Part shown: in pieces, positions 561 through 37,184 of the stretch
How positions within the stretch are numbered: the first letter of the stretch is position 1
Layout of the letters: every line of letters begins with the position of its first letter
Virus record (IMG/VR): IMGVR_UViG_3300015371_000013
Location: 1 to 64,000 of that record
Direction: 5' to 3' (one strand)
Source: a virus
Length of the DNA: 64,000 nucleotides
Notes under the pieces: generated by a model
Databases searched by the model: none
Seen by the model: only the letters and a program-made list of their open reading frames with translations
What the model was told of the DNA's origin: nothing
Position numbers and translations under genes: made by a program

Positions 561-3440
561 TCACTCAACACCTGACTTCAAGGTGGACATGGGAATGCCT
601 AGCGAACTTGAGATCTCAGCGTATGTAAAGCCTGATGACAACATCTGCTTAGCTCTAGCTGTTACAGCATCAGTCATCACAGGCCTCTCCCTAGGTGTGG
701 CTCTCCTACGAATGGCCTCTACATCAGTATACTTAAGGATGCTCTCCATCATCTCCTTAGAGATAGCTCCAGCTTGAATAGCATCCCATTGACGATCAGT
801 TAGACCTATACGATTCTTCTTTCCTCCTGCTCCAGTACGAAGTCGAGCTTCTTTAATCGCACTGTCTCTTACCTTCTTGAGCTCATCCTTCTCCATGTTA
901 GGATTAGCACTTCTTCTCTGTGCCACCATACGTCGGGCTACAGCCTGAGCCTGGCGTTCTAGAGGAGCATTCCTCTCAGCTACTCGAACAGCTGACTTTA
1001 GTTCTTCTACCTCTTTACTGTACACCTTCTTTGCCGACTTGGACATAGGGGTAAGCTTTACCCTTACCGCCTCTCTACGTGCCTCATTAGCCATAGCCTT
1101 AAGGCGATTAGAATGATCAGCGTAGTACTGTTCCTGTATGGTACCTCTACCCTTAGAGACTAGGCTATAAGCATTAGTTGTCTCAGCCAATCTCTCAGAC
1201 TTAAACCTAGCAGGCTCATCAGTTTTAACGTACCGCTTCTTACCCGTCTTAGGATCTACCTCAGCGACACGCTTACGTTCCCCAGTATCGACGTAAACCT
1301 TTCTACCTGTCTTTACATCGATGGTCCCTACTGAAAGCCGCTTTACTCCTGGCCCTGCCGGAGCATCCTTACGTTTAACCGGGTACGTCTCAGCCCCAGC
1401 TCTGGTAATCAGTGTAGCTGCACCACCAGGTAGACCGGTCTTAGGATTAACTCCTTGATACTTTCTCTTTAGTTCCAGAATTCCGTGATGTCTCTCGGAT
1501 GCCTTGTAGTCTAGATTATGTTTCTCAGAATCAATGACCACCATCGAATGACGTACAGCACGAGACAACTCTTCTCGAGTAGCACCCCTGAGAGTCATGT
1601 CAGAGATAAGGTTTGTAACCTTACCCATCTGCAAACCCTTTTGTTGTGGGGTAATAGAAGGGGTACCATCAGGATACTTCTTAGTTTTAGGTCCCAGAGG
1701 CACCTTGTATGACTGAGGATCAAACCCCTTCAAATTCTCCAAAGGCCGAGTAGACTCGATCTTACCCCTAGGATTCGGAATGACCACCACATGGTCGCCA
1801 TCGAAATCCGCACCCGACAAACGCTCTGCCACCTTGGGATGAATGGCTACGGCATCCGGAGCTCTTCCTCCTTTTCCGATACCGAAAAGCTTCTTAGCTT
1901 CTCGCGATCGATTGTTAACCGTCAACTGTGGAATCTCAAAGGTTCCCGCATGAGGAAACCGAATCAGAGCAACTCTCTCACCATCATGAAACGTAGGGGC
2001 AAAGATCTCGTGTGGTTTTACATGGTTAGAAGGAAGAAGGACTTTTGTTGCTTGCCGATCCATACTAGCTGCCGCAAGATGTACAGCAGCCGAATCAGTT
2101 TCGTCAGAGAAGGTTTCTAGAAGCTTTCTCTTAATGAGAGGATTAGTCAACGATTTGATTTCGTCGAATTCTTCTCTTCTTCGATCATGGGTAAAATCAA
2201 GCTGAGACTTGATCAACGCAGGAGACTGCTTAGACAACATCTGACTAGAGATCCGATTCGTCCAAGTATCCCAGTCACCCTCTTCAGTGAGAAGATTCAT
2301 CACTGATTTAGGTTTACCATCCTTACCCAGAATCTGTCCACCTTCTTTGATGACAGACCCGAAGGGAAGAGTCTTATCAACTTCTCCAGTTTCCTTATCC
2401 TTCTTGAGCGGCTTCATGGCGTCGAATTTGTTGCCCGTATTCGACTTATTGGTATTGAACTGAAGATCTATACCAGCAGGCAAATCGTCCTTATAGACAG
2501 CCATACCCTTCAAGAAGTGGGTGCCACCAACTGCAATTCGAACCTGAGCATAACGCGCCTTGCCAAGACTAACATCTTCCACACCCGGACGGACATAGAT
2601 AACGCCATCTGCATCAGCGCCACCATCTTCTTTGTATTTAACTCCTACTCGTTTGGGATCAATGTGAAGCGGGGGCTTAATCCCCATGTCTTGCCAGGTC
2701 TTACCACCATCCTCAGTTTTCTCAGCGATCAATCTAATGTTATCACGATTCGTCCAGGCTTGTTTCTGAGTAACCCCCGGCTTGACCAGCACCTTGTAGG
2801 TGGTCATCTCTCCGGTAGTAACTTGAGGAGCTTTGAAGGTATGGACACCATAACCCTCTTCCTTGAGCATAGAAAGAGCGGTATTGAATTTGTCCGGGCT
2901 GATACCAATTCGTGTATCGGGATTATCGCCAATAGGAAGATCGAGATGAACTTTTGATCCAACGTCAATGATATCCTTCTCTGCAACTTGCCGCTTAAGC
3001 ATATTCGCAGTTTGTTGAAGTTCATTCAGTCGTTCAAGGCGTCCAGGCTCAAGAAGTGAACGAACCGTAGATTCATTAATCTTCTTATCAGGAGACGACA
3101 TCTGATTAGCGATTGCCGTTGGGCCCATGCCTTTGTCGCGCAGACGCTGAGCTTCACGAATCTGATTCAAGGTTACCTCGGTAGAGGCCCGAGATGTCAT
3201 TGCTCGAATGTCTGCCGAAGTCATCTGATATTTCTTGATGACATTACCATCTTTATCCACAGGAGAATACGCCTTGGCGATCTCTGCTTCGGTCATCCCA
3301 TCGACCTTTTTGTGCTGCTCAACGATGTCTAGAAATGTCTTTGAGCGCTGAAGAGGATTCTGTCCCAAACCCCAGGGGTAACGACCCGATTTTCGGAGTA
3401 TTCCGTAGTGACTCAAATAGGTTTCTTCGTCCAAACGCAC
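561..3440 (-). CDS. Single-subunit double-psi beta-barrel DNA-dependent RNA polymerase with HTH domains
   Basis: RLSGADFDGDHV catalytic DxDGD motif, upstream RFPHA motif, HTH-like segments near both termini, 959 aa. Confidence 0.75.
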   Translation of the reverse strand: MRLDEETYLSHYGILRKSGRYPWGLGQNPLQRSKTFLDIVEQHKKVDGMTEAEIAKAYSPVDKDGNVIKKYQMTSADIRAMTSRASTEVTLNQIREAQRLRDKGMGPTAIANQMSSPDKKINESTVRSLLEPGRLERLNELQQTANMLKRQVAEKDIIDVGSKVHLDLPIGDNPDTRIGISPDKFNTALSMLKEEGYGVHTFKAPQVTTGEMTTYKVLVKPGVTQKQAWTNRDNIRLIAEKTEDGGKTWQDMGIKPPLHIDPKRVGVKYKEDGGADADGVIYVRPGVEDVSLGKARYAQVRIAVGGTHFLKGMAVYKDDLPAGIDLQFNTNKSNTGNKFDAMKPLKKDKETGEVDKTLPFGSVIKEGGQILGKDGKPKSVMNLLTEEGDWDTWTNRISSQMLSKQSPALIKSQLDFTHDRRREEFDEIKSLTNPLIKRKLLETFSDETDSAAVHLAAASMDRQATKVLLPSNHVKPHEIFAPTFHDGERVALIRFPHAGTFEIPQLTVNNRSREAKKLFGIGKGGRAPDAVAIHPKVAERLSGADFDGDHVVVIPNPRGKIESTRPLENLKGFDPQSYKVPLGPKTKKYPDGTPSITPQQKGLQMGKVTNLISDMTLRGATREELSRAVRHSMVVIDSEKHNLDYKASERHHGILELKRKYQGVNPKTGLPGGAATLITRAGAETYPVKRKDAPAGPGVKRLSVGTIDVKTGRKVYVDTGERKRVAEVDPKTGKKRYVKTDEPARFKSERLAETTNAYSLVSKGRGTIQEQYYADHSNRLKAMANEARREAVRVKLTPMSKSAKKVYSKEVEELKSAVRVAERNAPLERQAQAVARRMVAQRRSANPNMEKDELKKVRDSAIKEARLRTGAGGKKNRIGLTDRQWDAIQAGAISKEMMESILKYTDVEAIRRRATPRERPVMTDAVTARAKQMLSSGFTYAEISSSLGIPMSTLKSGVE

Positions 3441-4000
3441 TACGGCACCTCCTCTCTGAGTCGATTGAGAATTCTATCGAAGTCCACAATTTTGTCCATA
3501 ATTCCTCTTATAAAATGTGGATCAGCATCATACAACAGTACTCTGCTGTCCTTGTACAAGCGAAGCTCGATGCCTCGCAGAGAAAACGGATCTATCTCGT
3601 ATTCGAGACAGAAGAGTGCAGCGTAAACTTCCAACTGATGCTCGGAAACACGTGTGACACCGGTTTTGAGATCGCTGATGCGAAGAAGTCTATACCGGTA
3701 AGCGATAGCGTCAACTGTGCCGAAAGAGTTCGGTGAGTAGAAGAGGACGACCTCGGGGGACATCTTGTACTGAATACACTGGTTGATGTACAATCCGACC
3801 GTAGTCGTTTCGTCATCTTGAACGATCCCTTCTTCGATACAGATAGCAGCGTAACGATGATGCTCCATACCCTCCAGGGCTGCTCTAAGCGCTTTGTATC
3901 GAAATCTTAGCTTCTCCTCGTCGTAGTTTATCCAGTGGTAAGAACTAGGACTGAGGAAGGCATGCTGCCCCTCGAGATGCGAATGCTTCTTGAAGCGCAG
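3440..4000 (-). CDS. PD-(D/E)XK RecB/Cas4-like exonuclease; probable CTG start
   Basis: GTVDAI...ISDLKTG...QLEVYA motifs; frame open from 3868 up to a CTG at 4000 that sits 6 nt after GAGGAGG. Confidence 0.75.
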   Translation of the reverse strand: MRFKKHSHLEGQHAFLSPSSYHWINYDEEKLRFRYKALRAALEGMEHHRYAAICIEEGIVQDDETTTVGLYINQCIQYKMSPEVVLFYSPNSFGTVDAIAYRYRLLRISDLKTGVTRVSEHQLEVYAALFCLEYEIDPFSLRGIELRLYKDSRVLLYDADPHFIRGIMDKIVDFDRILNRLREEVP

Positions 4001-4262
4001 TGATTACCTCCTCTTCATTCTCTGGATAGATAAACGCAGCGAAAGACATGTTGTTCATCTGCTGGACATAAAAAGCTTGATTAGGTCGTTCGGCCGAATT
4101 TGCCGAAGCTTTGACCTCAAGCATAGCCCAACATGGACCATAGAACAGAGTAAGATCGAGGATTCCCTGCACATAGTTCGGATCGTTTTTAAGGACTTCG
4201 CAGCCCGGGAATGTGCGCTTTAACTTACGAATGAGTTGACTTTGATACGCCGATTCAGTCAT
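3945..4262 (-). CDS. VRR-NUC-like PD-(D/E)XK nuclease / Holliday junction resolvase
   Basis: MTESAYQ...QGILDL...LEVK...RPNQ pattern. Confidence 0.7.
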   Translation of the reverse strand: MTESAYQSQLIRKLKRTFPGCEVLKNDPNYVQGILDLTLFYGPCWAMLEVKASANSAERPNQAFYVQQMNNMSFAAFIYPENEEEVITALQEAFASRGAACLPQS

Positions 4263-4402
4263 GGATCCGGATCCTCGTTTCTGAAGATCCATACCGGAAA
4301 AGTGAGATGAAGAACCAGGTACTCAATCAGTCTTTTTACCACGAATCCCCTTTCAAATAGCGAAAAAAGAGAAACCAATTTCGGATATTGTATCCCTCTT
4401 CT

Positions 4403-4426
4403 ATCATATGCTGCGATTTACACGCG
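4403..4426 (-). promoter_or_regulatory. Phage promoter element (CGCG-N14-TATGAT) upstream of nuclease/RNAP operon
   Basis: Same 14-nt spacing as the other 22 copies; hexamer variant followed by A rather than G. Confidence 0.6.
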
Positions 4427-4466
4427 TTCCAGTATCTGAAAAAAAATACGGGCATTCTGATCAATC

Positions 4467-15090: not shown

Positions 15091-15688
15091 TCTCCTCCTC
15101 TCCCCAAAGCATGTCCTACGGCCAGACCTTGCAGCCAACCTGTCGAGTAGACCACGGTTTTACTGGTTTCCTGATCCAATCTCTCTCTGTGAGCGTAGGC
15201 ATTGGCAAAGGCGTAGTTCACCAGCTTCTCTGAAGGTCCCAGACCGAGTTCGTCGAGCATTCCCCACCCGATGGGGTTTTTCTGCTTCGCTGCCTCTACT
15301 CGATCAAGAGCGGCGTTGATTTCGTCCTCGCTATAGGGCATTAAACGCTTTCATCTTTCTCGCGATAGAGAATCGGCTGATATGACGGATCGATAGCCAA
15401 TCCGTGGTTTTTCGCTTCCCGGATCAGATCCTCTACCTCATACATCTTGCTGTCCGGCGTAGCCCCCAACCAGGCCACGATTTGATCGTCCTTGGGAAGC
15501 ACTAGATTATGAACCTGCAGATAGAAACTCTGAAGCGGCTGATCCCACCCGAACACCCACTTCATGGTTGCTTTCCGATTTACGACAACATGCCTCGACA
15601 CTGAGTCCTTTCTTCTCTTAACTTGGAGTACCGGATTCGACTTCGCCTCCGGATCGATGAGAATATGAATGTTGGTGATACCCATCAT
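15087..15688 (-). other. Two hypothetical CDSs (15087..15341, 15341..15688)
   Basis: Translationally coupled ORFs. Confidence 0.6.
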
Positions 15689-18600
15689 GACACGAACTTT
15701 CTAAAGGAACCAAATCCTTCGATAGCTGTGACAGCAGCATCTTTGAGCTTCTCGAAATATGACATGTCGATCTGCAAATCGTCTCCGGCTTCGATAGCCG
15801 CCTCAGATTCCATCCACAAATGACCCTTGGTTCCACTCACCGCGTAGTACTTGTCTTCAAAGCATCGATAGAGAGCTCCGCCGCCCTCTTTTACGGGTAC
15901 AAACAGCCCAGTCCTGCCCACATGCTTTAATTGTCCATCGGAGGCGCTTAGAACCCCGTTTACGGGCGTCTCAGAGCCTGTGTAGAGATACATGGTTCCC
16001 TTCTGGACGCTGCGCGCCTCGCAATAATCGTCGAAGGTTGTTCCTTCTTTTGAAAATAGGGTCTTGAACACGTAGGGATGCTGGAATTGAGCTCCCACTG
16101 CCTCCCAGTTGTACTTCGGGTATCCCTCTTCCCAGGGGACGGTCTGAATCCCGGCAATATAAACCGCATCGTTGACCAGACAGAAGCGATCGACAGTTTC
16201 CTCATGCTCGAATTCGTACCCATAAAGTGAGCCGAAGGTTTTCACCGCGCCGATGACATCAAGGTTGGCGTTCGGGATTTTCACCGAGTCGGTCTTGATA
16301 TGGATGACCTGATAGCCCTCGTCTTGGAGAAACTGCTTTAAGTCGATCATGAACAGCGCGCCACGCTTGGCTACGATGTTGTCTTTGTTGCGAACATCTC
16401 GGAATGGATTGTCGAACTTGGCAGACGTGAGACCATACACAATATTGAGAGCGATACGCAAGGCGTAGGCCAAGTCGGTGCCATGGCGTCCTGCCGTATC
16501 GTCCTCGGCGCCTTCCAAGAATTTGGCGAGTCGTCCATCGAGAAGAAACCGAGCTTTCTCGTAGTCCTCTTGCTTGATCGCCACGCGCGCTTCGGTGAGC
16601 GCAGCGTAATTCTTGGTGTAAGGGCCAAATAAGTTTAGAATTTTGATGGTCGTAGGATGCATGCTGACCACATCCAACACTGCCACGTTCTCATAGATTC
16701 CGGGTTCGGCGTAGACGTAGCCTCCCTCTCCCGGTTCCTCTCCCTTGTAATAGCTCTTGCCGAGCTCGAACTTGTAACCAGGAAACTGCTCGGAGAGATC
16801 TGTGTAGACGAACTTTTTGTGAGCCGTCTTTACATCTTTGCCAAATATGATTCGAGCGGTATGATTCTGAGTGGTGTCATTGACCGTCAATCCGGACAGC
16901 TCAGCCAGAATCTGTCGGGCCAGATAATCACCCCTACGAGCCTCGAATACGGCTTCGGTGGCCTTTACGTCATTGACACAGTACTCCACTACTCTTCCCC
17001 AGTTCGTCTCGTCTACCGGTTTATCCCAGGGAAGGTCTAACTCCATGTGAAGAATGCCGAGATCGATCTCGAATTTCTTCAAGGATTTCTTCTCGGTGGA
17101 GAAGTCCCAAATATCAGCGTAGGAGAGATTGTAAGCCTGGGCGAAGGTGGCTGCGCGGTTTCCCTCGATGATCTTGACAGTCAGACGATACAACTCTTCG
17201 TTGCTGGCACCCATAGCCGCAGCGTAGAGAATATGATTGTCAAAGCGGCGATTGTAGAACCCCACCAATTTGAACTTGAACAGTTCTGCCACATCATGCG
17301 GCTTGGGGTTGATCATTCTTGCCACGTCGGGTGATCCCTGAAACTTCCAGCACACCACGAAGAGGTTAGGATATACCTCGACATCAAAAAAGACAAGACG
17401 ATCATCAGTCACTTCCACTGATCTCTCAGCGGTGAATCTTTCTTCCTTGCTCTCTTCCGTCTCTTCCGAGGCCCACTTCATGTCCTTGACGATTCGCAAA
17501 CAGGCGGCAGCTTGATTAGACGAGTTGTTGGCAAACGCCATGATCTTGCTACGTAGATCAGTCACATCATACTTCATGCCTGATTCGTAGGCATCATCGA
17601 GAATCTTCTTGATGAAATCTATTGACGGCTTGGTGCCGGGATGAATCTCCTTGCGGAGATTTCGATTAATAAGTTCTCGCAGTCCTTGTTCGCTTTGAAT
17701 CGTCTTGGCCTTAAGCATCGTTTCCTTTCTCTCCCGCAGCGGCAAGCCTGAACTGATCTTTGCCACTGGTACCCGATTACAACGGGACAACTTCCGTCTT
17801 AGAGAGGCATCGCCCGAGTAGGTCTTAACTTCGACTCCCTCAGCGAACACAGGAGACAGTTCCGACACATCTCCGGTGTAAATATAGTGCAGGTGGATTC
17901 CCGAACCAGAACGGCTGATCTCGGCATAAGTGGCAGGCCACTGAGAGGCCGCTTCCAGATTTCGCTCTAGAGCCTTACGACCGTTTTGACCCTTGAGATC
18001 GAAATCGATCACCACGTGATTTTCCGGGATCTTTACGTAATGAATTTTACGCGTATCAATATCTGAGAGCTTGGTTTCCACATTGGCCCACCGTTTGGTA
18101 GGCATGCCCTCAGAATTGGCCAATTGCGCCGGGCAATCAGCGTAGAAATCATCAAGCAGGGACACCTTCTCTTCTAGGACCAGAGAAAATACGGTTCGAT
18201 CGTCGGTCGGGGCCTTGAACTTGTCAGCCGTAAACCCTCGGTACACACTGCGAACCAGCTCGCCATCGATTTCGACCCGGTCCTTGAACTCCTCAAAGTA
18301 ATTTCGCAGTTCTTCACGCATCTTGTACTGCGGAAGAGGCCGGTTGATCCCGCTTTCCTCACAGTAGGTCTTATACAGAAAATATGCTTGCTTTAAGGTA
18401 GTGTAATCCTGGCTCTTGAAGACGTCGTAATGGGCTTCGATGAAGTTAAAGAAGACGTCGGTCTGCAACATCATCTCCATCGGGCGATAGGTATTGTAGT
18501 AATTCTTACCCATGGACAAATAAACAGAAAGACAATGGTGAGCGATAGCGCCCAGCTCAAAGCCGATCTGGGTCATGAGCGTCTGATAACGCTTGGCCCC

Positions 18601-19509
18601 GAACTTGATACCCGTAGGATGCACATCGATCAAGCGGCGGATAATGCCCGACTTGGCGTCAGAAATTCTCACCGGCTGGTTCGAGCCCAGGAACAACATG
18701 GCATCGATCCGGGAAGAATATGCGGGCTTGTACTTCTCGTTCATCGTCATCTGCTCATGAGCGATGATCGAATTAAGCCGAGCGTTTTCCTCGATGCGGC
18801 TCAGATCGCCATCGTGCTGAATCGCCACCAGCGGATTGGACTTGAACACTTCGGTGGCAAAGGCCGAATTGGAAGACCCCAGGGCTTTACCATCAAAGCT
18901 CGTGCAATATCCCTCGAACAGCATGTTGATGATGTTCATCACCGTCGACTTCCCGGTGCCAGGAGGCCCATAGAAGACGATGAACTTCTGGATCTTCTTG
19001 GAATCACCAGCAATAATCGAACCGATCGCCCATTCGATCTTGGCTCGTTCATCTGGCGAATAAAGCGTGGACATGAGTTCATCCCACGCGGAAATATCCC
19101 CCTCGCCGATGGCATAGGGAAGCATCTTGCTGACATAATCTGATTTCTTTATCTCCGCATTGGCGAAGGTCAGATTACGATCCAGCGGTTTACTGTTATC
19201 GGAAATATGGGCCATGAACTTTCGAAATTGAGCCCAGGAGTTGGAATGGAACGATCGCATGAATTTTACGAGATAACGCTGCCCGGTCTCCCGCTGCAGT
19301 TTTTCCTTCTCCTGGGCCAGAACTTCATCGACGAGCCGTTGCACGTCGTATTCGTCTCTCGACCACAGATTCTTTTCGGGATCCCAGATGGCATAGAATC
19401 GTCCACCCTGGACCATCAGATCCTCGGAGCGCCCAACCACAAAGTCAGGATATAGCTCCAACTGCTTGTCCTTTGCTTCCCTCGCAAGGATCTGAATGAA
19501 GTCCATCAC
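15685..19509 (-). CDS. Helicase-primase-DNA polymerase fusion (SF3 helicase, prim-pol, 3'-5' exonuclease, PolB-like)
   Basis: GPPGTGKS; VIDFD and SRSGSGIHLHY; FDVEV, YNRRFD, YCVND; DVVSMHP, NIVYG, KTDS. Confidence 0.9.
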   Translation of the reverse strand: MMDFIQILAREAKDKQLELYPDFVVGRSEDLMVQGGRFYAIWDPEKNLWSRDEYDVQRLVDEVLAQEKEKLQRETGQRYLVKFMRSFHSNSWAQFRKFMAHISDNSKPLDRNLTFANAEIKKSDYVSKMLPYAIGEGDISAWDELMSTLYSPDERAKIEWAIGSIIAGDSKKIQKFIVFYGPPGTGKSTVMNIINMLFEGYCTSFDGKALGSSNSAFATEVFKSNPLVAIQHDGDLSRIEENARLNSIIAHEQMTMNEKYKPAYSSRIDAMLFLGSNQPVRISDAKSGIIRRLIDVHPTGIKFGAKRYQTLMTQIGFELGAIAHHCLSVYLSMGKNYYNTYRPMEMMLQTDVFFNFIEAHYDVFKSQDYTTLKQAYFLYKTYCEESGINRPLPQYKMREELRNYFEEFKDRVEIDGELVRSVYRGFTADKFKAPTDDRTVFSLVLEEKVSLLDDFYADCPAQLANSEGMPTKRWANVETKLSDIDTRKIHYVKIPENHVVIDFDLKGQNGRKALERNLEAASQWPATYAEISRSGSGIHLHYIYTGDVSELSPVFAEGVEVKTYSGDASLRRKLSRCNRVPVAKISSGLPLRERKETMLKAKTIQSEQGLRELINRNLRKEIHPGTKPSIDFIKKILDDAYESGMKYDVTDLRSKIMAFANNSSNQAAACLRIVKDMKWASEETEESKEERFTAERSVEVTDDRLVFFDVEVYPNLFVVCWKFQGSPDVARMINPKPHDVAELFKFKLVGFYNRRFDNHILYAAAMGASNEELYRLTVKIIEGNRAATFAQAYNLSYADIWDFSTEKKSLKKFEIDLGILHMELDLPWDKPVDETNWGRVVEYCVNDVKATEAVFEARRGDYLARQILAELSGLTVNDTTQNHTARIIFGKDVKTAHKKFVYTDLSEQFPGYKFELGKSYYKGEEPGEGGYVYAEPGIYENVAVLDVVSMHPTTIKILNLFGPYTKNYAALTEARVAIKQEDYEKARFLLDGRLAKFLEGAEDDTAGRHGTDLAYALRIALNIVYGLTSAKFDNPFRDVRNKDNIVAKRGALFMIDLKQFLQDEGYQVIHIKTDSVKIPNANLDVIGAVKTFGSLYGYEFEHEETVDRFCLVNDAVYIAGIQTVPWEEGYPKYNWEAVGAQFQHPYVFKTLFSKEGTTFDDYCEARSVQKGTMYLYTGSETPVNGVLSASDGQLKHVGRTGLFVPVKEGGGALYRCFEDKYYAVSGTKGHLWMESEAAIEAGDDLQIDMSYFEKLKDAAVTAIEGFGSFRKFVS

Positions 19510-29691: not shown

Positions 29692-30072
29692 CTATGCGGT
29701 CACTACATCCGGCTTCCTGGCCACCCAGGTCGAGCTGATGAGATAGAGCCCAGCCAGGGTCGACAAGAACAGACCCCAACCCGGCTGAACCAGATCGTTG
29801 ACTCCCGCCTCACTGAGATGGAACCAGACATAGGCCACTTGAGACAGGACTACGAGACCGACGAAGATCGAGACGATCCTCATGTAGAGACCGGAGACGG
29901 CGGACGCGATGACGAGTCCGATGCCTGTGAATATGGCGACCGCCACCTCGGTGAAGTTCATCGGCCCGGCGCTGATGACTCCGAGAAAGCTGATCCAGGG
30001 GCCAAGGGCACCAAAGATAAGCGCGATAGCGCCAATGGTGAGCGCGGTGGGACGGTTGAGCTTGGTAGTCAT
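29692..30072 (-). CDS. Four-TM membrane protein
   Basis: Four hydrophobic helices, GPW and PGWGL motifs; AAGGAG RBS before MTTK. Confidence 0.7.
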   Translation of the reverse strand: MTTKLNRPTALTIGAIALIFGALGPWISFLGVISAGPMNFTEVAVAIFTGIGLVIASAVSGLYMRIVSIFVGLVVLSQVAYVWFHLSEAGVNDLVQPGWGLFLSTLAGLYLISSTWVARKPDVVTA

Positions 30073-30097
30073 GATGACTCCTTTATGGATTGTGGAT

Positions 30098-30185
30098 AAA
30101 AAAGAGAGACCCATCTCCTCCTGCTGTCGTAGCATGGCTTCGTTGGCAGGTCGCGTAGCATAGCTTCGCTGTGGAGATAGGTCTC
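30098..30185 (-). ncRNA. ~85-nt RNA with two copies of hairpin CGAAGC(U/C)AUGCUACG
   Basis: Stem GAGACCUAUCUCC/GGAGAUGGGUCUC then U-run; repeats at 30128-42 and 30154-68. Confidence 0.7.
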
Positions 30186-30195
30186 AAAATATAAA

Positions 30196-30314
30196 GAAAC
30201 CCCAGCACATTGCTCTACCTGGGCGCAATGCACTAGATAGAGTTAGGTGGGCACTCGAGGTACTTTTTACACCGTAGCCTGAGCGCAATGCATCAGACTA
30301 ACTGCTGGGGTTTC
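30196..30314 (-). ncRNA. Promoter-driven ~120-nt RNA with duplicated UGCAUUGCGC(U/C)CAGG
   Basis: Perfect 12-bp terminal stem 30196-207/30303-314; repeats 30218-32 and 30278-92. Confidence 0.75.
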
Positions 30315-30338
30315 ATTATACCACGGGTTTTCTACGCG
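30315..30338 (-). promoter_or_regulatory. Phage promoter element CGCG-N14-TATAAT
   Basis: Consensus match; overlaps stop codon of upstream gene. Confidence 0.8.
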
Positions 30339-30739
30339 AATACGGAATTCGGCAAAGCCGCAAACCGTTCTTGTAACCCGTGAATATCCTGAGCAATCTC
30401 ACGAGCGTTTTTGCCAACAACGGCTGCAGCTCGATTGATGCTCGGATAAGGTTCGCCAGTCAGCTTGTCCAAAACAGGAATTGGCTCACGACAAGCTCTT
30501 TTTACGAGGGCTATCTGGGTGATCTTGGGCTTCCAGATAATCAACGCCGTATTCTTTGCTTTCTGCTGTATCTCAAGCGGCAAACCGTTGAGACGAAGTA
30601 GAATGGTGGTCGCAGTGACAGAAGAGCCCACCGCGAGACATCCTGCGCCGACGAGATACACCTTCTTGTTCTCCTGCAGATGCTGCTTAACCCGCTCGAT
30701 CTTGGTACGATCGTCCTGCTTTTCTCCTTCCTGACTCAT
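30332..30739 (-). CDS. Membrane-anchored protein with C-terminal NUMOD1-like HTH (paralog of 34325..34705)
   Basis: KQHL..NKKVYLVGAGCL; PVLDKLTGEPYPSINRAA. Confidence 0.65.
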   Translation of the reverse strand: MSQEGEKQDDRTKIERVKQHLQENKKVYLVGAGCLAVGSSVTATTILLRLNGLPLEIQQKAKNTALIIWKPKITQIALVKRACREPIPVLDKLTGEPYPSINRAAAVVGKNAREIAQDIHGLQERFAALPNSVFA

Positions 30740-30922
30740 AGTCCCTTCCTTGGGTTGAACACTGATTTACAAATATGAGCGATGGTGACAGCGGTGATGA
30801 TCTTTATCACTGCGTCCGTCGTCTTGTCAATCACTCGTTCCACGTCTTCGGTGGGGATGTTGATGTTGATGTTTACATCATCTTCGATCTTGTGCTTCAC
30901 GACTCTCCTTGTCGCCCGAGGG

Positions 30923-30984
30923 AAAAAATGAAAGAGATCACAATTTCGAATATGCGATTACAGGAGCCTTTCTCCTTCTCTTTC
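30923..30984 (-). ncRNA. Promoter-driven ~60-nt three-way-junction RNA
   Basis: GAAAGAG/CUCUUUC stem then A-U6; hairpins AGGAG/CUCCU and AUCGCA/UGUGAU. Confidence 0.65.
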
Positions 30985-31008
30985 ATTATAGGGGCGGTTT
31001 TTCACGCG
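30985..31008 (-). promoter_or_regulatory. Phage promoter element CGCG-N14-TATAAT
   Basis: Consensus match. Confidence 0.8.
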
Positions 31009-31010
31009 AA

Positions 31011-31373
31011 TTATTCACCCTCAATATCTGCTTTGATATCCGGCAATTCCTTCGGGCGTTCTCGTCTTTCTGAGGTGACGATCACGGTTATGGTGGGCAA
31101 TTCCCACCGGCGTTCGGCCAGAGGATCGATCTGCATCTGGCGAAGATCCTCAGGCGTTAAAGAGAACTCGTATACTTCAGGCGTGATGACCTTGTCTCTG
31201 TCGGCCAGCACCGAGTTGAACTTCATCGCCTTGTAGGTAACCGCCGATCCAACCATGGCTCCAAATATCCCGGTGGCGGCGTAAGGATGATCGGTAGCGA
31301 ATCTGATCGAACGAGACAGCAGAAGCAACCAGTTTATCTGGTTCATCTGCTCTTTCATCTGATCTTGCTCCAT
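31011..31373 (-). CDS. Single-pass membrane protein (paralog of 36936..37184)
   Basis: TM followed by LTPEDL....DP....W motif. Confidence 0.65.
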   Translation of the reverse strand: MEQDQMKEQMNQINWLLLLSRSIRFATDHPYAATGIFGAMVGSAVTYKAMKFNSVLADRDKVITPEVYEFSLTPEDLRQMQIDPLAERRWELPTITVIVTSERRERPKELPDIKADIEGE

Positions 31374-31994
31374 CTAGCCAACCTCCTTGCTGGCCTGTAT
31401 CGAAGCGCTTACACCAATGATTCTGCAGAGAAGATTGATCGAATCGTGAGAATGCAGCGGCTCGTAATGCGGATTGAGCTTGTCTTGCTTTACCAGATCA
31501 ACGATGCCCTGAATATCCGTACGCCATTGAGAAGACGTATAGTAATCGGCCAGCCCGCGATCCGTACGCTTAAGCGTGTCAAGGAACTTATCCTCGGCAA
31601 TCTCCTTAATACGATTTGCCCATTCCGAGGTAATTTCCATAGTCGCCCCTGTGCCCTTCTGAACGAAGGGCGAATTGTCGACGTACTGCATAGCGTCGTT
31701 GTAGATTCGAGCAACCACGATCTCCTTGAGGGCATCCTGACCATAGATCAGGACAGCATAACCCAAGGGCAGATTCCAGATCTTCTCCGGACGACCATGA
31801 TGAACGCCCTGAGTGAGGCAGTTGTAGCCCCACTCGATTTCCTTCTGAGACTTCTGAGGACCCTTTACCTTGATGAACTTCACCATATTCTCAGCCTCGT
31901 ATTCCGAGACATCAAGTTCTTTGGCGATTTCACTGATAGAACGGTCTTCGCCTATCATCTGACGAGTTCGAGCTAGTTTCTCTTGGGTGTTCAT
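31374..31994 (-). CDS. N-terminal HTH protein
   Basis: RSISEIAKELDVS; AGAGGAG RBS. Confidence 0.6.
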   Translation of the reverse strand: MNTQEKLARTRQMIGEDRSISEIAKELDVSEYEAENMVKFIKVKGPQKSQKEIEWGYNCLTQGVHHGRPEKIWNLPLGYAVLIYGQDALKEIVVARIYNDAMQYVDNSPFVQKGTGATMEITSEWANRIKEIAEDKFLDTLKRTDRGLADYYTSSQWRTDIQGIVDLVKQDKLNPHYEPLHSHDSINLLCRIIGVSASIQASKEVG

Positions 31995-32099
31995 TACTCT
32001 CCTCTATACGCTTGATCTTTTGCTCCCAGAATGTCCAGTCCCGCCACCGCTGTTCTAGCAAATATAGCCGTTCTGGAGTCAACCACGGAGCAATCAACT

Positions 32100-32569
32100 T
32101 CATTGATCTCCAAGTCCGGTATCGCGCAGAATTTTTCGCGAGATTTCCTTCGGATCAGTCAACCCTTGCCATTCTGTTCCTTCGCGGATGGCAAACAGGA
32201 CGTCAATCACGGCCAGATTGTATCCGACAAACTTAGCCTGATCCTCCGGAGAAATCTCTAGGTCGCCAGGCACAGGCTCAGCAATCTGCATGAAAGTATC
32301 TTGAAGCTCTTTGAGTCGAGCTTTTTCGGTTTCGGTGATCATTGCTCTCCTAAATATAGTGATTAATCGTCGATAACCAGAGGGTCAAACCATCGACCAT
32401 CTAGATCATGACGAAACCCTGCCTCAAGCATACGTTGTTCGATAATCTCCGGATGCTCGGCCTCCATGTGCCGCACCTCTTCGTGCGTATTGTTGGCAAC
32501 TGCTCCACAATATGGGCAATGCCTCACACAATAAGGTCCGGAGCTCATGGGGTAATCCTCGTCATACAC
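32100..32569 (-). other. Two small CDSs (32100..32342; 32363..~32548 with CxxC/HxxxxH zinc finger)
   Basis: RBS; CPYC...HM..EH. Confidence 0.55.
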
Positions 32570-33021
32570 AGACTGATTCCACTCTGGGTACTCATGTAGC
32601 GCGCATCAGGCCAGATTCCCTTGCGATGAAGATCCAGCCGGTCGGCGTCCCAACAGGTGGCGATAGTGGGATTGATCGCTCTTTGACCAGAGCTATGCTC
32701 CACACAGGCCTCGAACAGTAGTTCTATTTGCTCATCGAAAATATAGCGATGGAGATGCTCTTGCGTCTTGTAGAAGCGTTCCCACAATCGATACCCTCGA
32801 TTTCCATGATCAGGATCTTTACCATCGTTTACCCGCATGGAGTCGTGAAATAAAGCGTACAACGCCACAACTTCCATGTCGGCGCCGGTTTCATACCCGT
32901 TTAGCATCTGAGCGTTCTGCCAGACCCTAAACCAATGGTCAAGACCATGGAGTCGACTCTGGAGAACGTTCAGGGTTATAGACTCGCCCAAGACAAAGGG
33001 AACGCAATGACTGGCGAGCAT
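32545..33021 (-). CDS. HD-domain phosphohydrolase
   Basis: HG..HW.RV, ALFHD, H, CWDADRLD. Confidence 0.85.
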   Translation of the reverse strand: MLASHCVPFVLGESITLNVLQSRLHGLDHWFRVWQNAQMLNGYETGADMEVVALYALFHDSMRVNDGKDPDHGNRGYRLWERFYKTQEHLHRYIFDEQIELLFEACVEHSSGQRAINPTIATCWDADRLDLHRKGIWPDARYMSTQSGISLCMTRITP

Positions 33022-33047
33022 GGTTACTCCTGCGGGTTGGCCGTTGA

Positions 33048-33320
33048 TTATAAACTTTCCTTTGCTTTCTTGCGCTTTCGTCTCTTGTAGGCACGATCCA
33101 CGGTTCGTCTAGCGCAGATATCGCTACAGTACTGTGCATCGTTTCGAGGCTTTCTTGTTTTCGAGAGAGGCTCTTGGAATAGAAATTCCTTTTGACAGGT
33201 TTCGTCAGCACATCGCTTGATCTCGACATCAAGTAAAGTCAAGATCGCATCTGTGAGAGTGCTGGTTTGAGTATAGGAAAGGGCAGTCTGAACTACTACG
33301 TCGGGTACATCTTGGTTCAT
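33048..33320 (-). CDS. CGNR-like zinc-finger protein
   Basis: CADETC..EF...AQYCSDIC.RR, basic tail. Confidence 0.6.
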   Translation of the reverse strand: MNQDVPDVVVQTALSYTQTSTLTDAILTLLDVEIKRCADETCQKEFLFQEPLSKTRKPRNDAQYCSDICARRTVDRAYKRRKRKKAKESL

Positions 33321-33872
33321 CACGACTGCAAATATGCGATGTCGCGAGCCTGCTTGAGATCGCGAGCCTGCTCGATGGTCAGACCAAGAAGCTCGGTCTT
33401 GGTGAAGCTCAGCTCGTCGCTGAACCACGGGAAGACAAACTTCTCAGAGCCGTCTTCCATAGTGGCGATGGCCTCCTTGTCACCGTAGCGGTGATTGGAG
33501 TCTTGAAAGATTACTGACTTGATGCGCATAACTCTCCTAGTTTGGGTTGCCGAACAGTTCTTCCAGACGTGTAGCCAGATACTCCTGTCGAACTTCGTGA
33601 TGAACGTCTTTCAACTCTTCAAGAATATCGTGAGCAATCTGCTGATACTCCTGGCTGCTCGTAGTCTCGACGGGGAACCAGCGGTTAAGCTTCGGGTAAG
33701 GCCCTTCGCTTCTAAGGGCGTTTTCCCGCTTGAGTCGTCCGAGCATGGTGGTGATCTGGAGTGGCGGGCCCTCGAAAGAAATCCCAGCAATGATCTCAGA
33801 TCGAGCGGCTCCAGGATTGGCACGGACATATTCTATGATTTGATGTGTAAGAGTGTTGTTGGTTTGTGACAC
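33320..33872 (-). other. Hypothetical CDS (33320..33529) and winged-HTH CDS (33537..33872)
   Basis: RBS; QIIEYVRANPG..RSEI...LGRLKR pattern. Confidence 0.55.
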
Positions 33873-33937
33873 AAAGTCTCTCAGGTTGTGGGGTCTCAGA
33901 AAAAATGAGAACCCACGAATGGATTCTCATTGAAATA

Positions 33938-34144
33938 CTACGACTTGTTGAGCTTGGCGGTCTCGAGGTTGAGCTTGGCGGTCTCGAGCTGCATCTGGTT
34001 CACCTTGAGGCCTGCGTACACGGACGCGCCGGTCAGAGCCACGGGAATGACGATCCACGCGGTCATGATGGCGGCATCCTTGATGCGCTGCTTCTTGGTG
34101 GGCTTGGGCGGCTCGACGACCTTGGGGGTCTCGGGCTCGGACAT
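33938..34144 (-). CDS. Single-pass membrane cassette protein
   Basis: AAGGAG RBS, TM, LETAKLN repeat; ORF-track extension runs through the upstream RNA. Confidence 0.7.
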   Translation of the reverse strand: MSEPETPKVVEPPKPTKKQRIKDAAIMTAWIVIPVALTGASVYAGLKVNQMQLETAKLNLETAKLNKS

Positions 34145-34193
34145 GCAACACTCCTTTTGTAGTGGTTTCATTATGAACTGTGAAATATCCGCG

Positions 34194-34298
34194 AAAGAAA
34201 AGAGAGAGCCACCTACCAACGACTTATAGAAGTTGGGATCCGACCCCCTTAAAGGGGATCTCGTCAAGGCGACTTAGAGAAGCCTAGATGACTCTCTC
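34194..34298 (-). ncRNA. Promoter-driven ~100-nt four-way-junction RNA with duplicated CUUCU(C/A)UAAGUCG
   Basis: 14-bp terminal stem with two G-U pairs; three hairpins, the outer two sharing the motif. Confidence 0.78.
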
Positions 34299-34324
34299 AC
34301 TATAAAGCGTGAATATGGCGCGAA

Positions 34325-34705
34325 TTATATGGTGATACGTTCGAAGTGCAACCCATTCGCATGCGGGTATTTACCGTTCAGATGCTGTGAAAGGTTAGTT
34401 TCCGAGATGCCCTTCGCCAAAGCGGCCTCTGCTTGGCTGCTCCACTTCTCCAGAGTTTCGAGACATCGTACTGGATTAGCCGGGTAATTGCGCTGGTTCA
34501 AATACTTGATGACCACGTCGACATTCTTTGACTTATTGACTATCAGACCAATGTTGTCAGTACCATTGAACGTCTGAATTACATTGGGGCTTGACACCCC
34601 GCGCAGCAAATATCCCGCGGTAAGACATCCTGCACCAACCAAGTAAACCTTCTTGTTGTCCTTCAAATGCTGCTTGATCTTCTGATAACGCGTAGACTCT
34701 TCCAT
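34325..34705 (-). CDS. Membrane-anchored protein with C-terminal NUMOD1-like HTH
   Basis: KIKQHLKDNKKVYLVGAGCL; PVRCLETLEKWSSQAEAA...SQHLNGK...GLHF. Confidence 0.7.
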   Translation of the reverse strand: MEESTRYQKIKQHLKDNKKVYLVGAGCLTAGYLLRGVSSPNVIQTFNGTDNIGLIVNKSKNVDVVIKYLNQRNYPANPVRCLETLEKWSSQAEAALAKGISETNLSQHLNGKYPHANGLHFERITI

Positions 34706-34760
34706 GATTTCCTTTAGTTCGTTTGAATAAAAAAGGAAAGCCCCTTTTCGGGGCTCGCCT

Positions 34761-34922
34761 TTAGGCGTAGATCTGAACGACGCCGGGGACGAGGGTGGTC
34801 TCAGCCAGCTTGGCCTGGGACTTGGTGATCATTCGCTCGTACTTGTACACCGCACGGATAGTGCGGAGAACGTTGACGTTTGCGTTGATCTCGGTCTTAA
34901 CGGCCTTGATGGGATGGAACAT
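34761..34922 (-). CDS. 53-aa cassette protein (not in ORF track)
   Basis: AAGGAG RBS; MFHPIKAVKTE...QIYA between promoter and terminator. Confidence 0.7.
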   Translation of the reverse strand: MFHPIKAVKTEINANVNVLRTIRAVYKYERMITKSQAKLAETTLVPGVVQIYA

Positions 34923-35009
34923 AATGGTCTCCTTTGGTGGTTTAGGTCTTCATTATGTACCATGTTTTTCACGCGAAAAAGGAAAGCCCGTGCGGACTCT
35001 CCTTAGAAA

Positions 35010-35207
35010 TTACTTCACCTGGTTGGAAGCTGCCTTGAGGGTTTCGAGGACGATCCTCTTGTCGAGCATCTTGTACGAGATGAATGAGTTGGCGACTGCG
35101 GTAGCACAGTAGATGGAAAAGCATCCGAGTACTAGCTTTTGGCTGCCAGTCATCATCATGATACGAGACCTCCTAAGAGGCTCACGGGTTTCGTTTGACT
35201 CGGGCAT
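35010..35207 (-). CDS. Cassette membrane protein
   Basis: Between promoter 35235 and terminator; an alternative start near 35159 has AGGAGG. Confidence 0.65.
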   Translation of the reverse strand: MPESNETREPLRRSRIMMMTGSQKLVLGCFSIYCATAVANSFISYKMLDKRIVLETLKAASNQVK

Positions 35208-35295
35208 AACTCTCCTAGAGTTGATAGTGGTTTCATTATAGCCTGTGAAAAGTATGCGAAAAACTGAAAGCCCGGGTTAGGGGCTCTCAGTTTGA

Positions 35296-35433
35296 TTAGC
35301 TGCTCTTCTTCGAAAGCAGATGATCGGCGATGACGATTGAACTCGTTGCCAGCGTAAGCCACGCACTGGCCCGAGTGGCCCGATGGGCGTGGGGGGCGGT
35401 GACGTGGATGACGGCGGCGAGCTTGTTCTTCAT
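35296..35433 (-). CDS. 45-aa cassette protein (not in ORF track)
   Basis: AAGGAG RBS; MKNKLAAV...SKKSS. Confidence 0.7.
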   Translation of the reverse strand: MKNKLAAVIHVTAPHAHRATRASAWLTLATSSIVIADHLLSKKSS

Positions 35434-35531
35434 GGCAAATCTCCTTCTGATAAGAGGGTTTACTTTTCATTAGAAGCTATGAAATATCCGCGAAAAACCT
35501 AGAGACCGGGTTAGGGTCTCAGGGTTTTGAA

Positions 35532-35723
35532 CTAGAACTTACGGGCGATGATGACTTGGGAGTTCGGCTCGAGTGCGGCCAGAGCATCGACATGTTCCTG
35601 GATGCGGCGCTGACGCTCCTGCTCTTCCCCAGCTGCAGCGAATGCAGTGAGGGTGAACAGAGCGGCGCCACCCAGGGCCTTGCCGGTGTTGCGGGCGTAC
35701 TTCTTGGCGGTTTCCTTGGTCAT
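35532..35723 (-). CDS. Cassette membrane/secreted protein
   Basis: RBS, hydrophobic segment. Confidence 0.7.
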   Translation of the reverse strand: MTKETAKKYARNTGKALGGAALFTLTAFAAAGEEQERQRRIQEHVDALAALEPNSQVIIARKF

Positions 35724-35823
35724 GGTTTTTCTCCTTTTGAGTTTGATTTAGTTCTCATTATAAGACATGAAAATTACGCGAAAAAAGAAAGAAAGAGAAT
35801 CCGATGCGGACTCCCTTCTTGAT

Positions 35824-35955
35824 TTAGACCTGCGAGGTGTACTGGTGACCAACGTCTTGTAGACTGGCGTACACGTCCATTGCAAATATGCTTCCCATCG
35901 CGAGGATGGTGAGCAGGATTACAACGAACATGAGGCGTCCGAGGGACAGGGTCAT
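35824..35955 (-). CDS. 43-aa membrane cassette protein (not in ORF track)
   Basis: AAGGAG RBS; MTLSLGRLMFVVILLTILAMG... Confidence 0.7.
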   Translation of the reverse strand: MTLSLGRLMFVVILLTILAMGSIFAMDVYASLQDVGHQYTSQV

Positions 35956-36043
35956 GAGGTATCTCCTTGTTTAGGTTTGGTTTCATTATACTCCATGAAA
36001 TATGCGCGAAAAAGGAAAGCCCGTGCGGACTCTCCTGTTGAGG

Positions 36044-36262
36044 TTACTTCTTGGGGTTAATGTTCTCGACAGCGCGCCTGGCGGAAGTGAGAGCGATCTG
36101 CTCCTCGAGGTACATGATGCGGGCATTGACCTTGTTGGTGTGGCTCTCGCTAGCGGCAGGGCTAGCGGAAAGCTGCCAACGAGTCATTTCGGCATTCAGG
36201 TACTCGAGGATGGCATCAAGCTTCTCAACTTCTGTAATAGGCTTACGGGTCTTGAAAAACAT
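36044..36262 (-). CDS. Cassette protein
   Basis: RBS, own promoter and terminator. Confidence 0.7.
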   Translation of the reverse strand: MFFKTRKPITEVEKLDAILEYLNAEMTRWQLSASPAASESHTNKVNARIMYLEEQIALTSARRAVENINPKK

Positions 36263-36343
36263 GTTGACTCCTTGATAGTGGTTTCACTATAATCCATGAA
36301 ATATGCGCGAAAAAGGAAAGCCTGGGTAGGCTCTCCTGTGAAA

Positions 36344-36520
36344 CTAATTGTTCTGCTGGGAAACGTCGGCTTCGAACTTGCGCTTATTTCGGCGGTCCAG
36401 ATAGTTGACGAATCCGATACCCACGACGATCAGAGTAGCGTTGAGGGCAACGTACTGAACGGGGTGACTACGAATCCAGTCGTACTGGACCTCCTGAGAC
36501 TTGCGGTAAAGCTTGAACAT
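36344..36520 (-). CDS. Cassette membrane protein
   Basis: GGAG RBS, WIRSHPVQY followed by TM. Confidence 0.7.
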   Translation of the reverse strand: MFKLYRKSQEVQYDWIRSHPVQYVALNATLIVVGIGFVNYLDRRNKRKFEADVSQQNN

Positions 36521-36614
36521 TGGAGTTCTCCAGTGTAGAGGTTTGGTTTCATTATAACCCATGAAATATGCGCGTAAAAAAAGAGAAGCCGGGTTAGGAC
36601 TCCTCTCTAACGAT

Positions 36615-36848
36615 CTAATCGATGGGAATCAGGTCGTAGTGAAATCGCGGAAAGCCGATACGTCTCATCTGGAAACGATAACGACCGGGCGGCACGGTGC
36701 GGAAATCTCCGTCCTGACACATGTTCATGAAAGTTCCGTGAAGAATCTTTTCTTTTTGTGTCGGGTCAGAGGTGACATAGGCAACGTGGGCCACATCGTC
36801 GTCGTTTATAGTGACGAGAATATAGGGTTTTGACGATTTTCGAAACAT
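36615..36848 (-). CDS. Cassette protein
   Basis: GAAAGGA RBS, own promoter and terminator. Confidence 0.7.
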   Translation of the reverse strand: MFRKSSKPYILVTINDDDVAHVAYVTSDPTQKEKILHGTFMNMCQDGDFRTVPPGRYRFQMRRIGFPRFHYDLIPID

Positions 36849-36935
36849 GATGTTCCTTTCGGGTAGGTGTCATTATAAGCTGTGAAATGTTCGCGAAAAA
36901 AGAAAGTCCCGGATTGAGACTCTCTTTTTGACTAC

Positions 36936-37184
36936 TTACACGACAGGACTCGCTTCGTTGAGGACGAAGATGTTGAGGCGATCAGAAGTCCACTTGAGAG
37001 CATCTCCTGGATTGTCCAGCAGCTTCTGGAGATTCTCAGGGCTGACCGAGAGGAACAGATCGCTGGTGTTGTTGGACATCAGGCGATGTGCTCCTACGGC
37101 TCCTGCAATAACTCCAGCACCGTAGACGATGACAGTGTGATGCTTCCGATAGAACTTCTTAGCACGTTGGTACTTGTCGTTCAC
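36936..37184 (-). CDS. Cassette membrane protein
   Basis: GTG start after AAGGAG; TM followed by VSPENL...LDNP. Confidence 0.7.
   Translation of the reverse strand: MNDKYQRAKKFYRKHHTVIVYGAGVIAGAVGAHRLMSNNTSDLFLSVSPENLQKLLDNPGDALKWTSDRLNIFVLNEASPVV

Follow-up and report, generated by a model that had tools for sequence, protein, structure and literature searches.

The window analysed here comprises 64,000 nucleotides, positions 1 to 64,000 of IMG/VR virus record IMGVR_UViG_3300015371_000013, and represents the first 64 kb of an uncultured 80.5-kb virus whose record is rated complete and occurs in rhizosphere and soil metagenomes. Its minus strand carries nearly all window genes, and every window feature given with coordinates below lies on that strand. 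When translated from the window, the gene under study, at 561–3440, runs through 959 codons as one uninterrupted frame. The start codon, a GTG at 3440, overlaps the TAG stop of the gene before it (TAGTG) and is preceded by a GGAGG ribosome-binding site, while alignment places the starts of four cultured-phage homologues within 1–3 residues of the start of the 959-residue protein. The open frame, the start evidence and a profile match identify the product (P0001) as a single-chain two-barrel RNA polymerase-like protein belonging to PHROG 4291.

The match to PHROG 4291, a family named 'RNA-dependent RNA polymerase', is full-length (E = 0, 1112 bits, residues 4–957 against profile positions 7–904 of 909). 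Homologues were found by tblastn in 250 cultured-phage records, one copy each at 35–49% identity, with Arthrobacter, Gordonia, Streptomyces, Lactococcus, Curtobacterium, Microbacterium, Rhodococcus and Faecalibacterium as hosts. The maximum identity to any cultured-phage homologue is 49%, and a search for near-identical DNA among cultured phages found none. More than 7,700 relatives occur in metagenomic databases, and clustering at 50% identity yielded 1,931 cluster representatives at E ≤ 1e-3. The persistence of the gene in more than 1,900 clusters and 7,700 proteins suggests that it is under strong selection. As in the cultured-phage members of PHROG 4291, the protein is a full-length family member encoded at the genome end, after VRR-Nuc and Cas4-like genes. 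The initial annotation, made from the letters alone, had stated that homologues usually pass as helix-turn-helix (HTH) proteins. The labels in the 250 phage records bear this out, being mostly HTH DNA-binding protein or hypothetical, with a minority reading RNA-dependent RNA polymerase. At least five names are in use across records: HTH DNA-binding protein, hypothetical, RNA-dependent RNA polymerase, putative RNA polymerase and transcription factor D5. No family match was obtained when the 959-residue protein was searched against NCBIfam.

An AlphaFold2 model built on 77 sequences reached a mean predicted local distance difference test score (pLDDT) of 88.5 and a predicted template modelling score (pTM) of 0.82, and was poor only at residues 1–32 and in the loop 699–704. 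Foldseek returned 27 PDB matches at E ≤ 1e-3, all of which are two-barrel RNA polymerases. QDE-1 was the best (2.4e-10), and P74-26 gp62, P23-45 gp64, maize and Arabidopsis RDR2, the tape-measure-fused gp96 and Pol IV were also found, with weaker matches to Pol II Rpb1 and bacterial beta'. In VIA-align, model residues 257–792 aligned with both double-psi beta-barrels (DPBBs) of QDE-1 (residues 681–1186; Z 15.5, 358 residues, root-mean-square deviation 4.2 Å). RDR2 followed at Z 15.0 and gp64 at Z 12.4, and Rpb1/beta'-type chains gave Z ~10.8 over model residues 455–673, the second barrel. Matches among the viral models of BFVD were phage 'RdRP' proteins, gp64, crAss-like pieces and giant-virus polymerase subunits. 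The proposal that this large HTH protein is a two-barrel RNA polymerase is thus supported at fold level by the predicted structure. The initial annotation named the absence of two DPBB domains from the model as a refuting outcome, and the predicted structure contains both. No Pfam RNA_pol match to a T7-like right-hand polymerase was found, and the significant fold matches are all to two-barrel enzymes.

In the model, residues 160–250 (2691–2963) form a small alpha/beta domain, assigned from secondary structure, between the N-terminal HTH units and the core. The first, beta-subunit-like DPBB spans residues 257–390 (2271–2672), with D278, R301, K311 and G312 and a variable insertion at ~330–376. 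The second, beta'-like DPBB spans residues 462–556 (1773–2057), consists of six strands and two short helices, holds the catalytic loop and is the part aligned with Rpb1/beta'. A long helical region follows the core at residues 795–915 (696–1058) and includes a conserved (I/L)TxxEWxAIQAGAIS segment, in which W885, A887, I888 and A892 are conserved; model helices span 768–914. The first barrel was also folded alone (residues 245–400, alignment of 35 loci, pLDDT 84.5). Its matches are nearly all DPBBs, namely QDE-1 681–786, RDR2, gp64, gp96 and the N-domains of p97/Cdc48/Pex, together with formylmethanofuran dehydrogenase subunit D (FwdD), molybdopterin-enzyme barrels and designed DPBB proteins. 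The lone barrel therefore supports a DPBB fold through the uniformity of the match list, the scores themselves being weak.

Residue conservation was assessed over 133 cluster representatives with 41–63% identity to the query, and a second set of 51 representatives was also used. The translation confirms the motif pair noticed at the outset, in which RFPH precedes SGADFDGD by about 50 residues: RFPH occupies residues 494–497 (1950–1961), SGADFDGD residues 542–549 (1794–1817, with DFDGD at 1808), and R494 lies 51 residues before D545. Invariant among the 133 representatives are R494, P496, S542, G543, D545, D547, G548 and D549, consistent with RFPH being the R-x-P motif of two-barrel polymerases and SGADFDGD the Mg-binding DxDGD loop; hhalign places the two motifs on RSPH and DNDGD of YonO. 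In the first barrel, Q299-V-R301, K311 and G312 are invariant, and D278-G279 is conserved at ≥90% in this set and invariant in the set of 51. Four D.DGD matches are present when the 80.5-kb genome is translated in all six frames; the pentapeptide alone is therefore weak proof, and it is conservation that gives this copy its meaning. No second DxDGD was found in a plausible protein of that genome, a DVDGD copy falling in the protease-capsid gene.

Ruprich-Robert and Thuriaux (PMC2919709) assign D709, R738 and K743 of QDE-1 to its first barrel, assign R962, P964 and D1007/1009/1011 to its second, and describe eight residues as common to all two-barrel polymerases; the conserved residues of P0001 appear to follow this pattern. 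The first-barrel set of Rpb2 is D837, K979 and K987. In two-barrel polymerases R-x-P precedes DxDGD by about 45–50 residues; RFPH, at 51, fits this spacing and corresponds by pattern to R962/P964. From their position in the modelled barrel, D278, R301 and K311 are probably equivalent to the first-barrel residues of QDE-1. A catalytically dead polymerase fold, retained only as a large DNA-binding regulator, would fit the fact that most databases register only the HTH domains of these proteins. Against it, the metal-binding aspartates, R-x-P and the first-barrel basic residues do not vary among representatives this diverse, and D278 hardly does. A dead enzyme is therefore unlikely, and we give this explanation next to no weight.

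Three HTH units are seen in the model, at residues ~36–57, 104–130 and 924–958. The HTH-like segments suspected at both protein ends are thereby recovered, and they agree with Pfam matches across the family and with the family profile, which matches solved HTH domains at both ends. The first unit (residues 36–57, 3270–3335) has helices at 36–45 and 51–57 and lies within profile positions 37–125, which match sigma and HTH chains. The second (HTH2, residues 104–130, 3051–3131) has helices at 107–114 and 123–129 and the recognition helix INESTVRSLL, in which E123 and R127 are conserved at ≥90% among the 133 representatives. The C-terminal unit (residues 924–958, 567–671) resembles sigma-70 region 4 or a resolvase HTH, with Sigma70_r4_2 at 937–956 and family-profile E values from 1.9e-12 to 1e-2. 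For P0001 itself, Sigma70_r4_2 (E 0.0036) and HTH_23 remain below the Pfam cut-off. Across the 51 representatives, HTH_23 is matched in 49, Sigma70_r4_2 in 47 (best E 1e-12), HTH_7 in 44 and Sigma70_r4 in 37. The C-terminal HTH scores 17.4 bits against sigma-70 region 4 (PF08281/PF04545; cut-off 25.7), and the PF08281 matches in 47 of 51 representatives at E ≤ 0.01 are about equalled by many other HTH families. Free-standing copies of the N-terminal HTH module are rare, 68 short proteins that are mostly singletons or at contig ends, compared with thousands of full-length proteins; fusion is therefore the rule.

Fused forms of another kind were found in P0163 and P0208 (1,789 and 1,809 residues), whose cores align with P0001 141–918 and have neither terminal HTH region. 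The two cores are 80% identical to each other and are preceded by a long N-terminal extension. In P0163 the first part of this extension is a portal domain (Pfam Phage_portal, E 3e-29). Each protein rests on a single Logan assembly contig, and a scan of viral contigs for portal-fused forms yielded unfused relatives only. P0163 hints at a portal-tethered, virion-carried polymerase in one lineage, or else at an assembly or gene-calling artefact.

Ahead of the first HTH lies a conserved N-terminal peptide, HYGxxRxSGRYPWGxG (residues 9–31, 3348–3416), which is predicted to be disordered (pLDDT ~45). This glycine-rich sequence is the most conserved stretch outside the active site, and G13, S18, G19 and R20 are invariant in the 133 representatives. 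With the peptide alone as query, tblastn returned the same 250 phage records, at one place each and always at the start of the polymerase gene. A shared targeting signal was considered and rejected, the peptide being confined to PHROG 4291 proteins. It is possible that the peptide acts in partner binding, priming or packaging.

Taken together, the model and the conserved residues indicate that the 959-residue protein is very likely a single-chain two-barrel RNA polymerase with DNA-binding modules fused at both ends. Residues ~256–790 would form the two barrels, with the catalytic set at their interface: D545/D547/D549 and R494-x-P496 on the beta'-like barrel, and D278, R301 and K311 on the beta-like barrel. 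Two HTH units and the disordered peptide would be joined to this core at the N-terminus and one HTH unit at the C-terminus.

The best structural matches, QDE-1 and RDR2 (Z 15.0–15.5, ~350–370 residues covering both barrels), are eukaryotic, cell-encoded RNA-dependent RNA polymerases (RdRPs; PF05183). They share with the phage protein the R-x-P...DxDGD spacing and probably the Asp/basic/basic pattern of the first barrel. They differ in having no HTH modules and acting as silencing enzymes on RNA or single-stranded DNA, and identity is only 10–16%. A literal reading of the family name would make the protein a true RdRP that copies or amplifies phage or host RNAs, for instance small structured RNAs from cassettes without an open reading frame (ORF). 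The phage does encode promoter-driven small RNAs (described below), and Pfam RdRP is the sole catalytic family matched. P0001 scores 14.2 bits over residues 536–638, below the gathering cut-off of 23.8 (E 0.018), while 23 of the 51 representatives match at E ≤ 0.01 (best E 7.6e-5). The name, however, derives from remote homology only, and the core bears three HTH modules of a double-stranded-DNA-reading type. Furthermore, gp64 aligns nearly as well as the RdRPs, and the phage members of the class that have been tested are DNA-dependent (PMC5467207, PMC10770324). We therefore regard RNA-directed synthesis as improbable. By analogy with those tested phage enzymes, the protein would instead be the phage's DNA-dependent transcriptase. 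A sequence search of solved structures with the single protein found nothing relevant, and the family profile found HTH domains only, plus a marginal match to the P23-45 tape-measure polymerase (E 0.5).

Thermus phage P23-45 gp64 and P74-26 gp62 (PDB 8f72, 8f5m; Z 12.3–12.4, ~350 residues) are, like the protein proposed here, phage-encoded single-chain two-barrel polymerases, and are not carried in the virion. It has been proposed that gp64 starts at its own conserved promoter motif without sigma, and gp64 and gp96 have separate promoter motifs of their own (PMC10770324). In contrast to P0001, gp64 is a minimal enzyme of ~600 residues without HTH domains, and its promoters are GC-rich. P23-45 also makes its first transcripts with a second, tape-measure-fused virion polymerase, whereas no second DxDGD protein is evident here. 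The virion polymerase gp66 of crAss-like phage phi14:2 belongs to the same fold class, and a BFVD match to a piece of a phi14:2 'structural protein' is weak (E 0.037); gp66 is a very large virion-packaged protein of far weaker similarity.

YonO of Bacillus prophage SPbeta, named for comparison in the initial annotation, is a single-chain, processive DNA-dependent polymerase (PMC5467207) that transcribes late genes in SPbeta and has RSPH...DNDGD in place of RFPH...DFDGD. The comparison holds as an analogy of fold class and of the aligned RxPH...DxDGD pattern, but not as family membership. BLASTP gave no significant match, one low-scoring alignment pairing the two motif sets, and the family hidden Markov model scored YonO no higher than 200 shuffled copies. 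When aligned by hhalign with 30 YonO homologues, residues 470–557 fell onto YonO 469–547 at E 0.032 and 1.6% probability; a first-barrel hhalign paired only FLKGMA with WVKGLL (KG motif). YonO is assigned to PHROG 8308, not 4291, and ends in a four-cysteine cluster (invariant C799, C802, C816 and C819) where the present protein has an HTH. Membership of the YonO family was rejected on the basis of BLASTP, the shuffled-copy comparison, both hhalign runs and the PHROG assignment. These negative tests argue that the protein forms a lineage of its own among the two-barrel enzymes of the QDE-1/YonO-like branch.

The 'CGCG box' that the HTH domains were suggested to read without a sigma factor belongs to a repeated element. 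About 20 copies of TTCGCG-N14-TATAATGAAAC occur, all on the gene strand and only at 9.0–38.1 kb (9015–38096). A position weight matrix (PWM) built from these array sites gave 22 forward matches and no reverse match. The sites precede small early or middle genes and ORF-less units, each following a hairpin and a T-run, and lie 23–33 nt upstream of the ribosome-binding site and start codon. None is found upstream of the structural genes. One promoter-driven, ORF-less unit at 30150–30321 is predicted to give a stable multi-arm RNA (−63 kcal/mol, z −4.5), whose closing stem begins at the G directly after TATAAT and ends in a U-run.

In this phage, as in Gordonia and Arthrobacter phages, a ~30-bp element, TCGC(G/A)-N14-TATAATGA, is repeated solely on the gene strand. 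These phages, and a Lactococcus phage that has the core only, all encode this polymerase. The PWM matched Gordonia phage Conley 12 times forward and never in reverse, and Arthrobacter phage Niktson 9–10 times forward. In the closest complete relative, the exact pattern TTCGCG-N13-15-TATAAT occurs five times. The core WWHCM-N5-TAYARTGA was found in forward orientation alone, with 17 copies in this phage, 11 in Conley, 9 in Niktson and 8 in Lactococcus phage P092 and none in reverse, against 0.08–0.32 in shuffled sequences. In 45 other polymerase-bearing viral loci the core was found 14 times forward and once in reverse, several copies having a TCGC(A/G) box at the same spacing.

Phage P092 offers a comparison between box and HTH2. 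It has TTTTACATACCCTATAATGA but no TCGC box, and its HTH2 recognition helix differs (SPGSVTNYAQ). Ten box-bearing genomes keep the HTH2 helix (N/G)ES(S/T/Y)VRxLL, and the C-terminal HTH helix is conserved in all, P092 included. HTH2 is thus a candidate reader of the TCGC(G/A) box, on the strength of sequence comparison.

A weak copy of the element, AACGCG-N14-TATGAT (4403–4428), lies upstream of the operon of endonuclease, exonuclease, polymerase and small gene. Weak copies also stand upstream of the VRR-Nuc/Cas4/polymerase genes in Conley (near 56036) and Niktson (near 54375), the hexamers in the three phages being TATGAT, TATAAC or TATGAT. Such a copy would let the polymerase operon run from its own promoter class, and could provide positive feedback once some enzyme is present.

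These observations are consistent with HTH domains that read the box without sigma, as hypothesised in the initial annotation. The fused HTHs would act as a built-in specificity factor that places the core on ~30-bp promoters of the form TCGC(G/A)-N14-TATAAT-GA, and the AT-rich hexamer would lie directly upstream of the start site instead of serving as a sigma-70 −10. With roughly one helical turn between the TCGC box and TT(A/T)CA, a pair of HTHs could read a single face of the DNA. In its full form, this proposal describes a self-sufficient, promoter-specific transcriptase that reads a ~31-bp element with TCGC at ~−24, TT(A/T)CA at ~−14, TATAAT at −6 to −1 and the start at the next G, its HTHs replacing sigma; we advance it tentatively, at somewhat less than even odds. 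Its further component, that phages of at least two bacterial phyla have jointly retained the ~31-bp element and the enzyme, is put forward with the same reserve. The resemblance to T7-type polymerases is functional only, consisting of a single polypeptide and a long, rigid, repeated promoter with an AT-rich stretch beside a G start. T7-type enzymes have a right-hand fold that is unrelated to the two-barrel fold proposed here.

The repeated sites might alternatively be host sigma-A early promoters, with an active two-barrel phage enzyme, produced later from the operon of the replication module, transcribing the late (structural) genes from other, unrecognised sites. TATAAT is the textbook −10 hexamer of sigma-70. 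A genome announcement for cluster DJ (PMC9671010), in which the Gordonia motif was seen, read TATAAT in just this way. The polymerase gene stands in the replication operon, small early-type genes are what the strong sites precede, and late transcription would match the role of YonO (PMC5467207). However, both TTGACA at 17 bp and a TG-extended −10 are absent from the element sites, which nevertheless conserve ~30 bp at rigid spacing. The same core is shared by Actinomycetota and Bacillota phages that have the enzyme, and the RNA stem described above begins directly after the hexamer. Furthermore, a second repeated motif before late genes was not seen in the late-region intergenic gaps. Host recognition of these sites is therefore considered unlikely, though it is the most credible of the alternatives to transcription from them by the phage enzyme.

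A replication role was also considered, in which the protein makes RNA in a sequence-specific manner and so primes or activates DNA replication at HTH-bound sites. The genome already encodes a 1,274-residue primase-polymerase (PHROG 4210). The element lies 23–33 nt before ribosome-binding sites and start codons and after terminators, and this placement indicates a promoter layout, not an origin. We consider this role very improbable.

Overall, we favour an active DNA-dependent two-barrel transcriptase whose HTH modules supply promoter specificity, and place the probability of this reading as a whole at roughly 70%. Several points weigh against it. The closest solved structures are RNA-dependent enzymes, and the first barrel alone scores weakly (Foldseek E ≥ 0.05, Z 3.2–4.4). 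The identity of TATAAT with the sigma-70 −10 hexamer, and its published interpretation as such, have been described above. The co-variation of HTH2 with the box amounts to essentially one independent contrast and is suggestive only. The P0163-type proteins have no terminal HTHs, hence these modules are not universally needed. The enzyme gene lies in the replication operon and none of the strong sites stands before structural genes. Timing is a further difficulty, since the strong sites precede early-looking genes that need transcription before a non-virion enzyme exists. Possible ways round this are a packaged enzyme, a first round by host polymerase on TATAAT, or feedback from the weak operon promoter. 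Finally, no experimental work on the PHROG 4291 family was found in the literature, and no RNA sequencing run was listed as containing window 30000–38100.

The polymerase prediction for PHROG 4291 is itself already published, and PHROGs and some RefSeq records carry the polymerase name. Koert et al. 2021 (bioRxiv 10.1101/842583) described the same 'HTH domain-containing protein' as a signature gene of the supercluster and reported an HHpred match to RdRP (95.7%), HTHs at both ends and the DxDGD loop, giving neither structure nor promoter analysis. The present work adds the structural test, the negative result on YonO membership, the family size, the HTH2/box lead and the fused forms, as well as conservation of the promoter core across two host phyla and of a weak promoter-like copy ahead of the polymerase operon. 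Annotation is a problem too: most records say HTH protein, and the 'RNA-dependent' label was taken literally in a 2026 paper (PMC13587820), which treats the 'RdRP' of a Streptomyces phage as an RNA-virus oddity and compares it with RNA-virus replicases.

Single-chain two-barrel polymerases offer a rare view of cellular-type RNA polymerase function in minimal form. Those studied so far are only YonO, the P23-45 enzymes and one crAss-like virion enzyme. PHROG 4291 is far larger, with more than 1,900 clusters, and its cultured carriers number in the hundreds and are easy to handle, being phages of Arthrobacter, Gordonia, Streptomyces and Lactococcus. DNA-reading modules and a candidate promoter are both present in cultured phages, so the question of promoter recognition is directly testable. 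If sigma-free, promoter-specific reading is true, the family would provide a cellular-type polymerase that is compact and comes with its own portable promoter, and a natural series for how a two-barrel core acquired promoter specificity.

In gene-strand order, from high to low coordinates, the structural genes of the window are the portal, a protease-capsid fusion, a 1,978-residue ORF that is probably the tape measure, and the tail genes. A region with many small genes follows, and then the replication module, which comprises the 1,274-residue primase-polymerase, a helicase, an HNH endonuclease, the endonuclease and the exonuclease, and leads to the polymerase-like gene and a last small conserved gene. 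The fused primase-polymerase (15685–19509) is a full-length match to PHROG 4210. With it and the polymerase-like gene, the phage possesses replication machinery of its own and probably transcription machinery as well. Upstream of the polymerase-like gene in the same operon are the exonuclease (3440–3868, PHROG 3953, labelled a Cas4 family exonuclease in Conley) and the endonuclease (3945–4292, PHROG 93, VRR-Nuc in relatives). The order of endonuclease, Cas4-type exonuclease, polymerase-like gene and small gene at the genome end is identical in Conley and Niktson, and the genome of P092 ends in the polymerase-like gene and a small ORF.

The gene after the polymerase (242–544) encodes a conserved 100-residue protein of PHROG 4303 (E 2.5e-35), an assignment that agrees with the synteny in cultured relatives; a Pfam search of this protein gave zero matches. 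The protein is acidic and tryptophan-rich, and it is also found 3' of the polymerase gene in Gordonia and Arthrobacter phages, its position in P092 being occupied by the small ORF. It is listed as a conserved hypothetical protein by Koert et al. (bioRxiv 10.1101/842583), and is a candidate accessory factor. The same authors report that, across the supercluster, phage G+C content falls far short of host values. Such a mismatch might be tolerated partly because the phages encode a transcription system. Conley and Niktson have ~50% G+C, near that of the uncultured phage described here.

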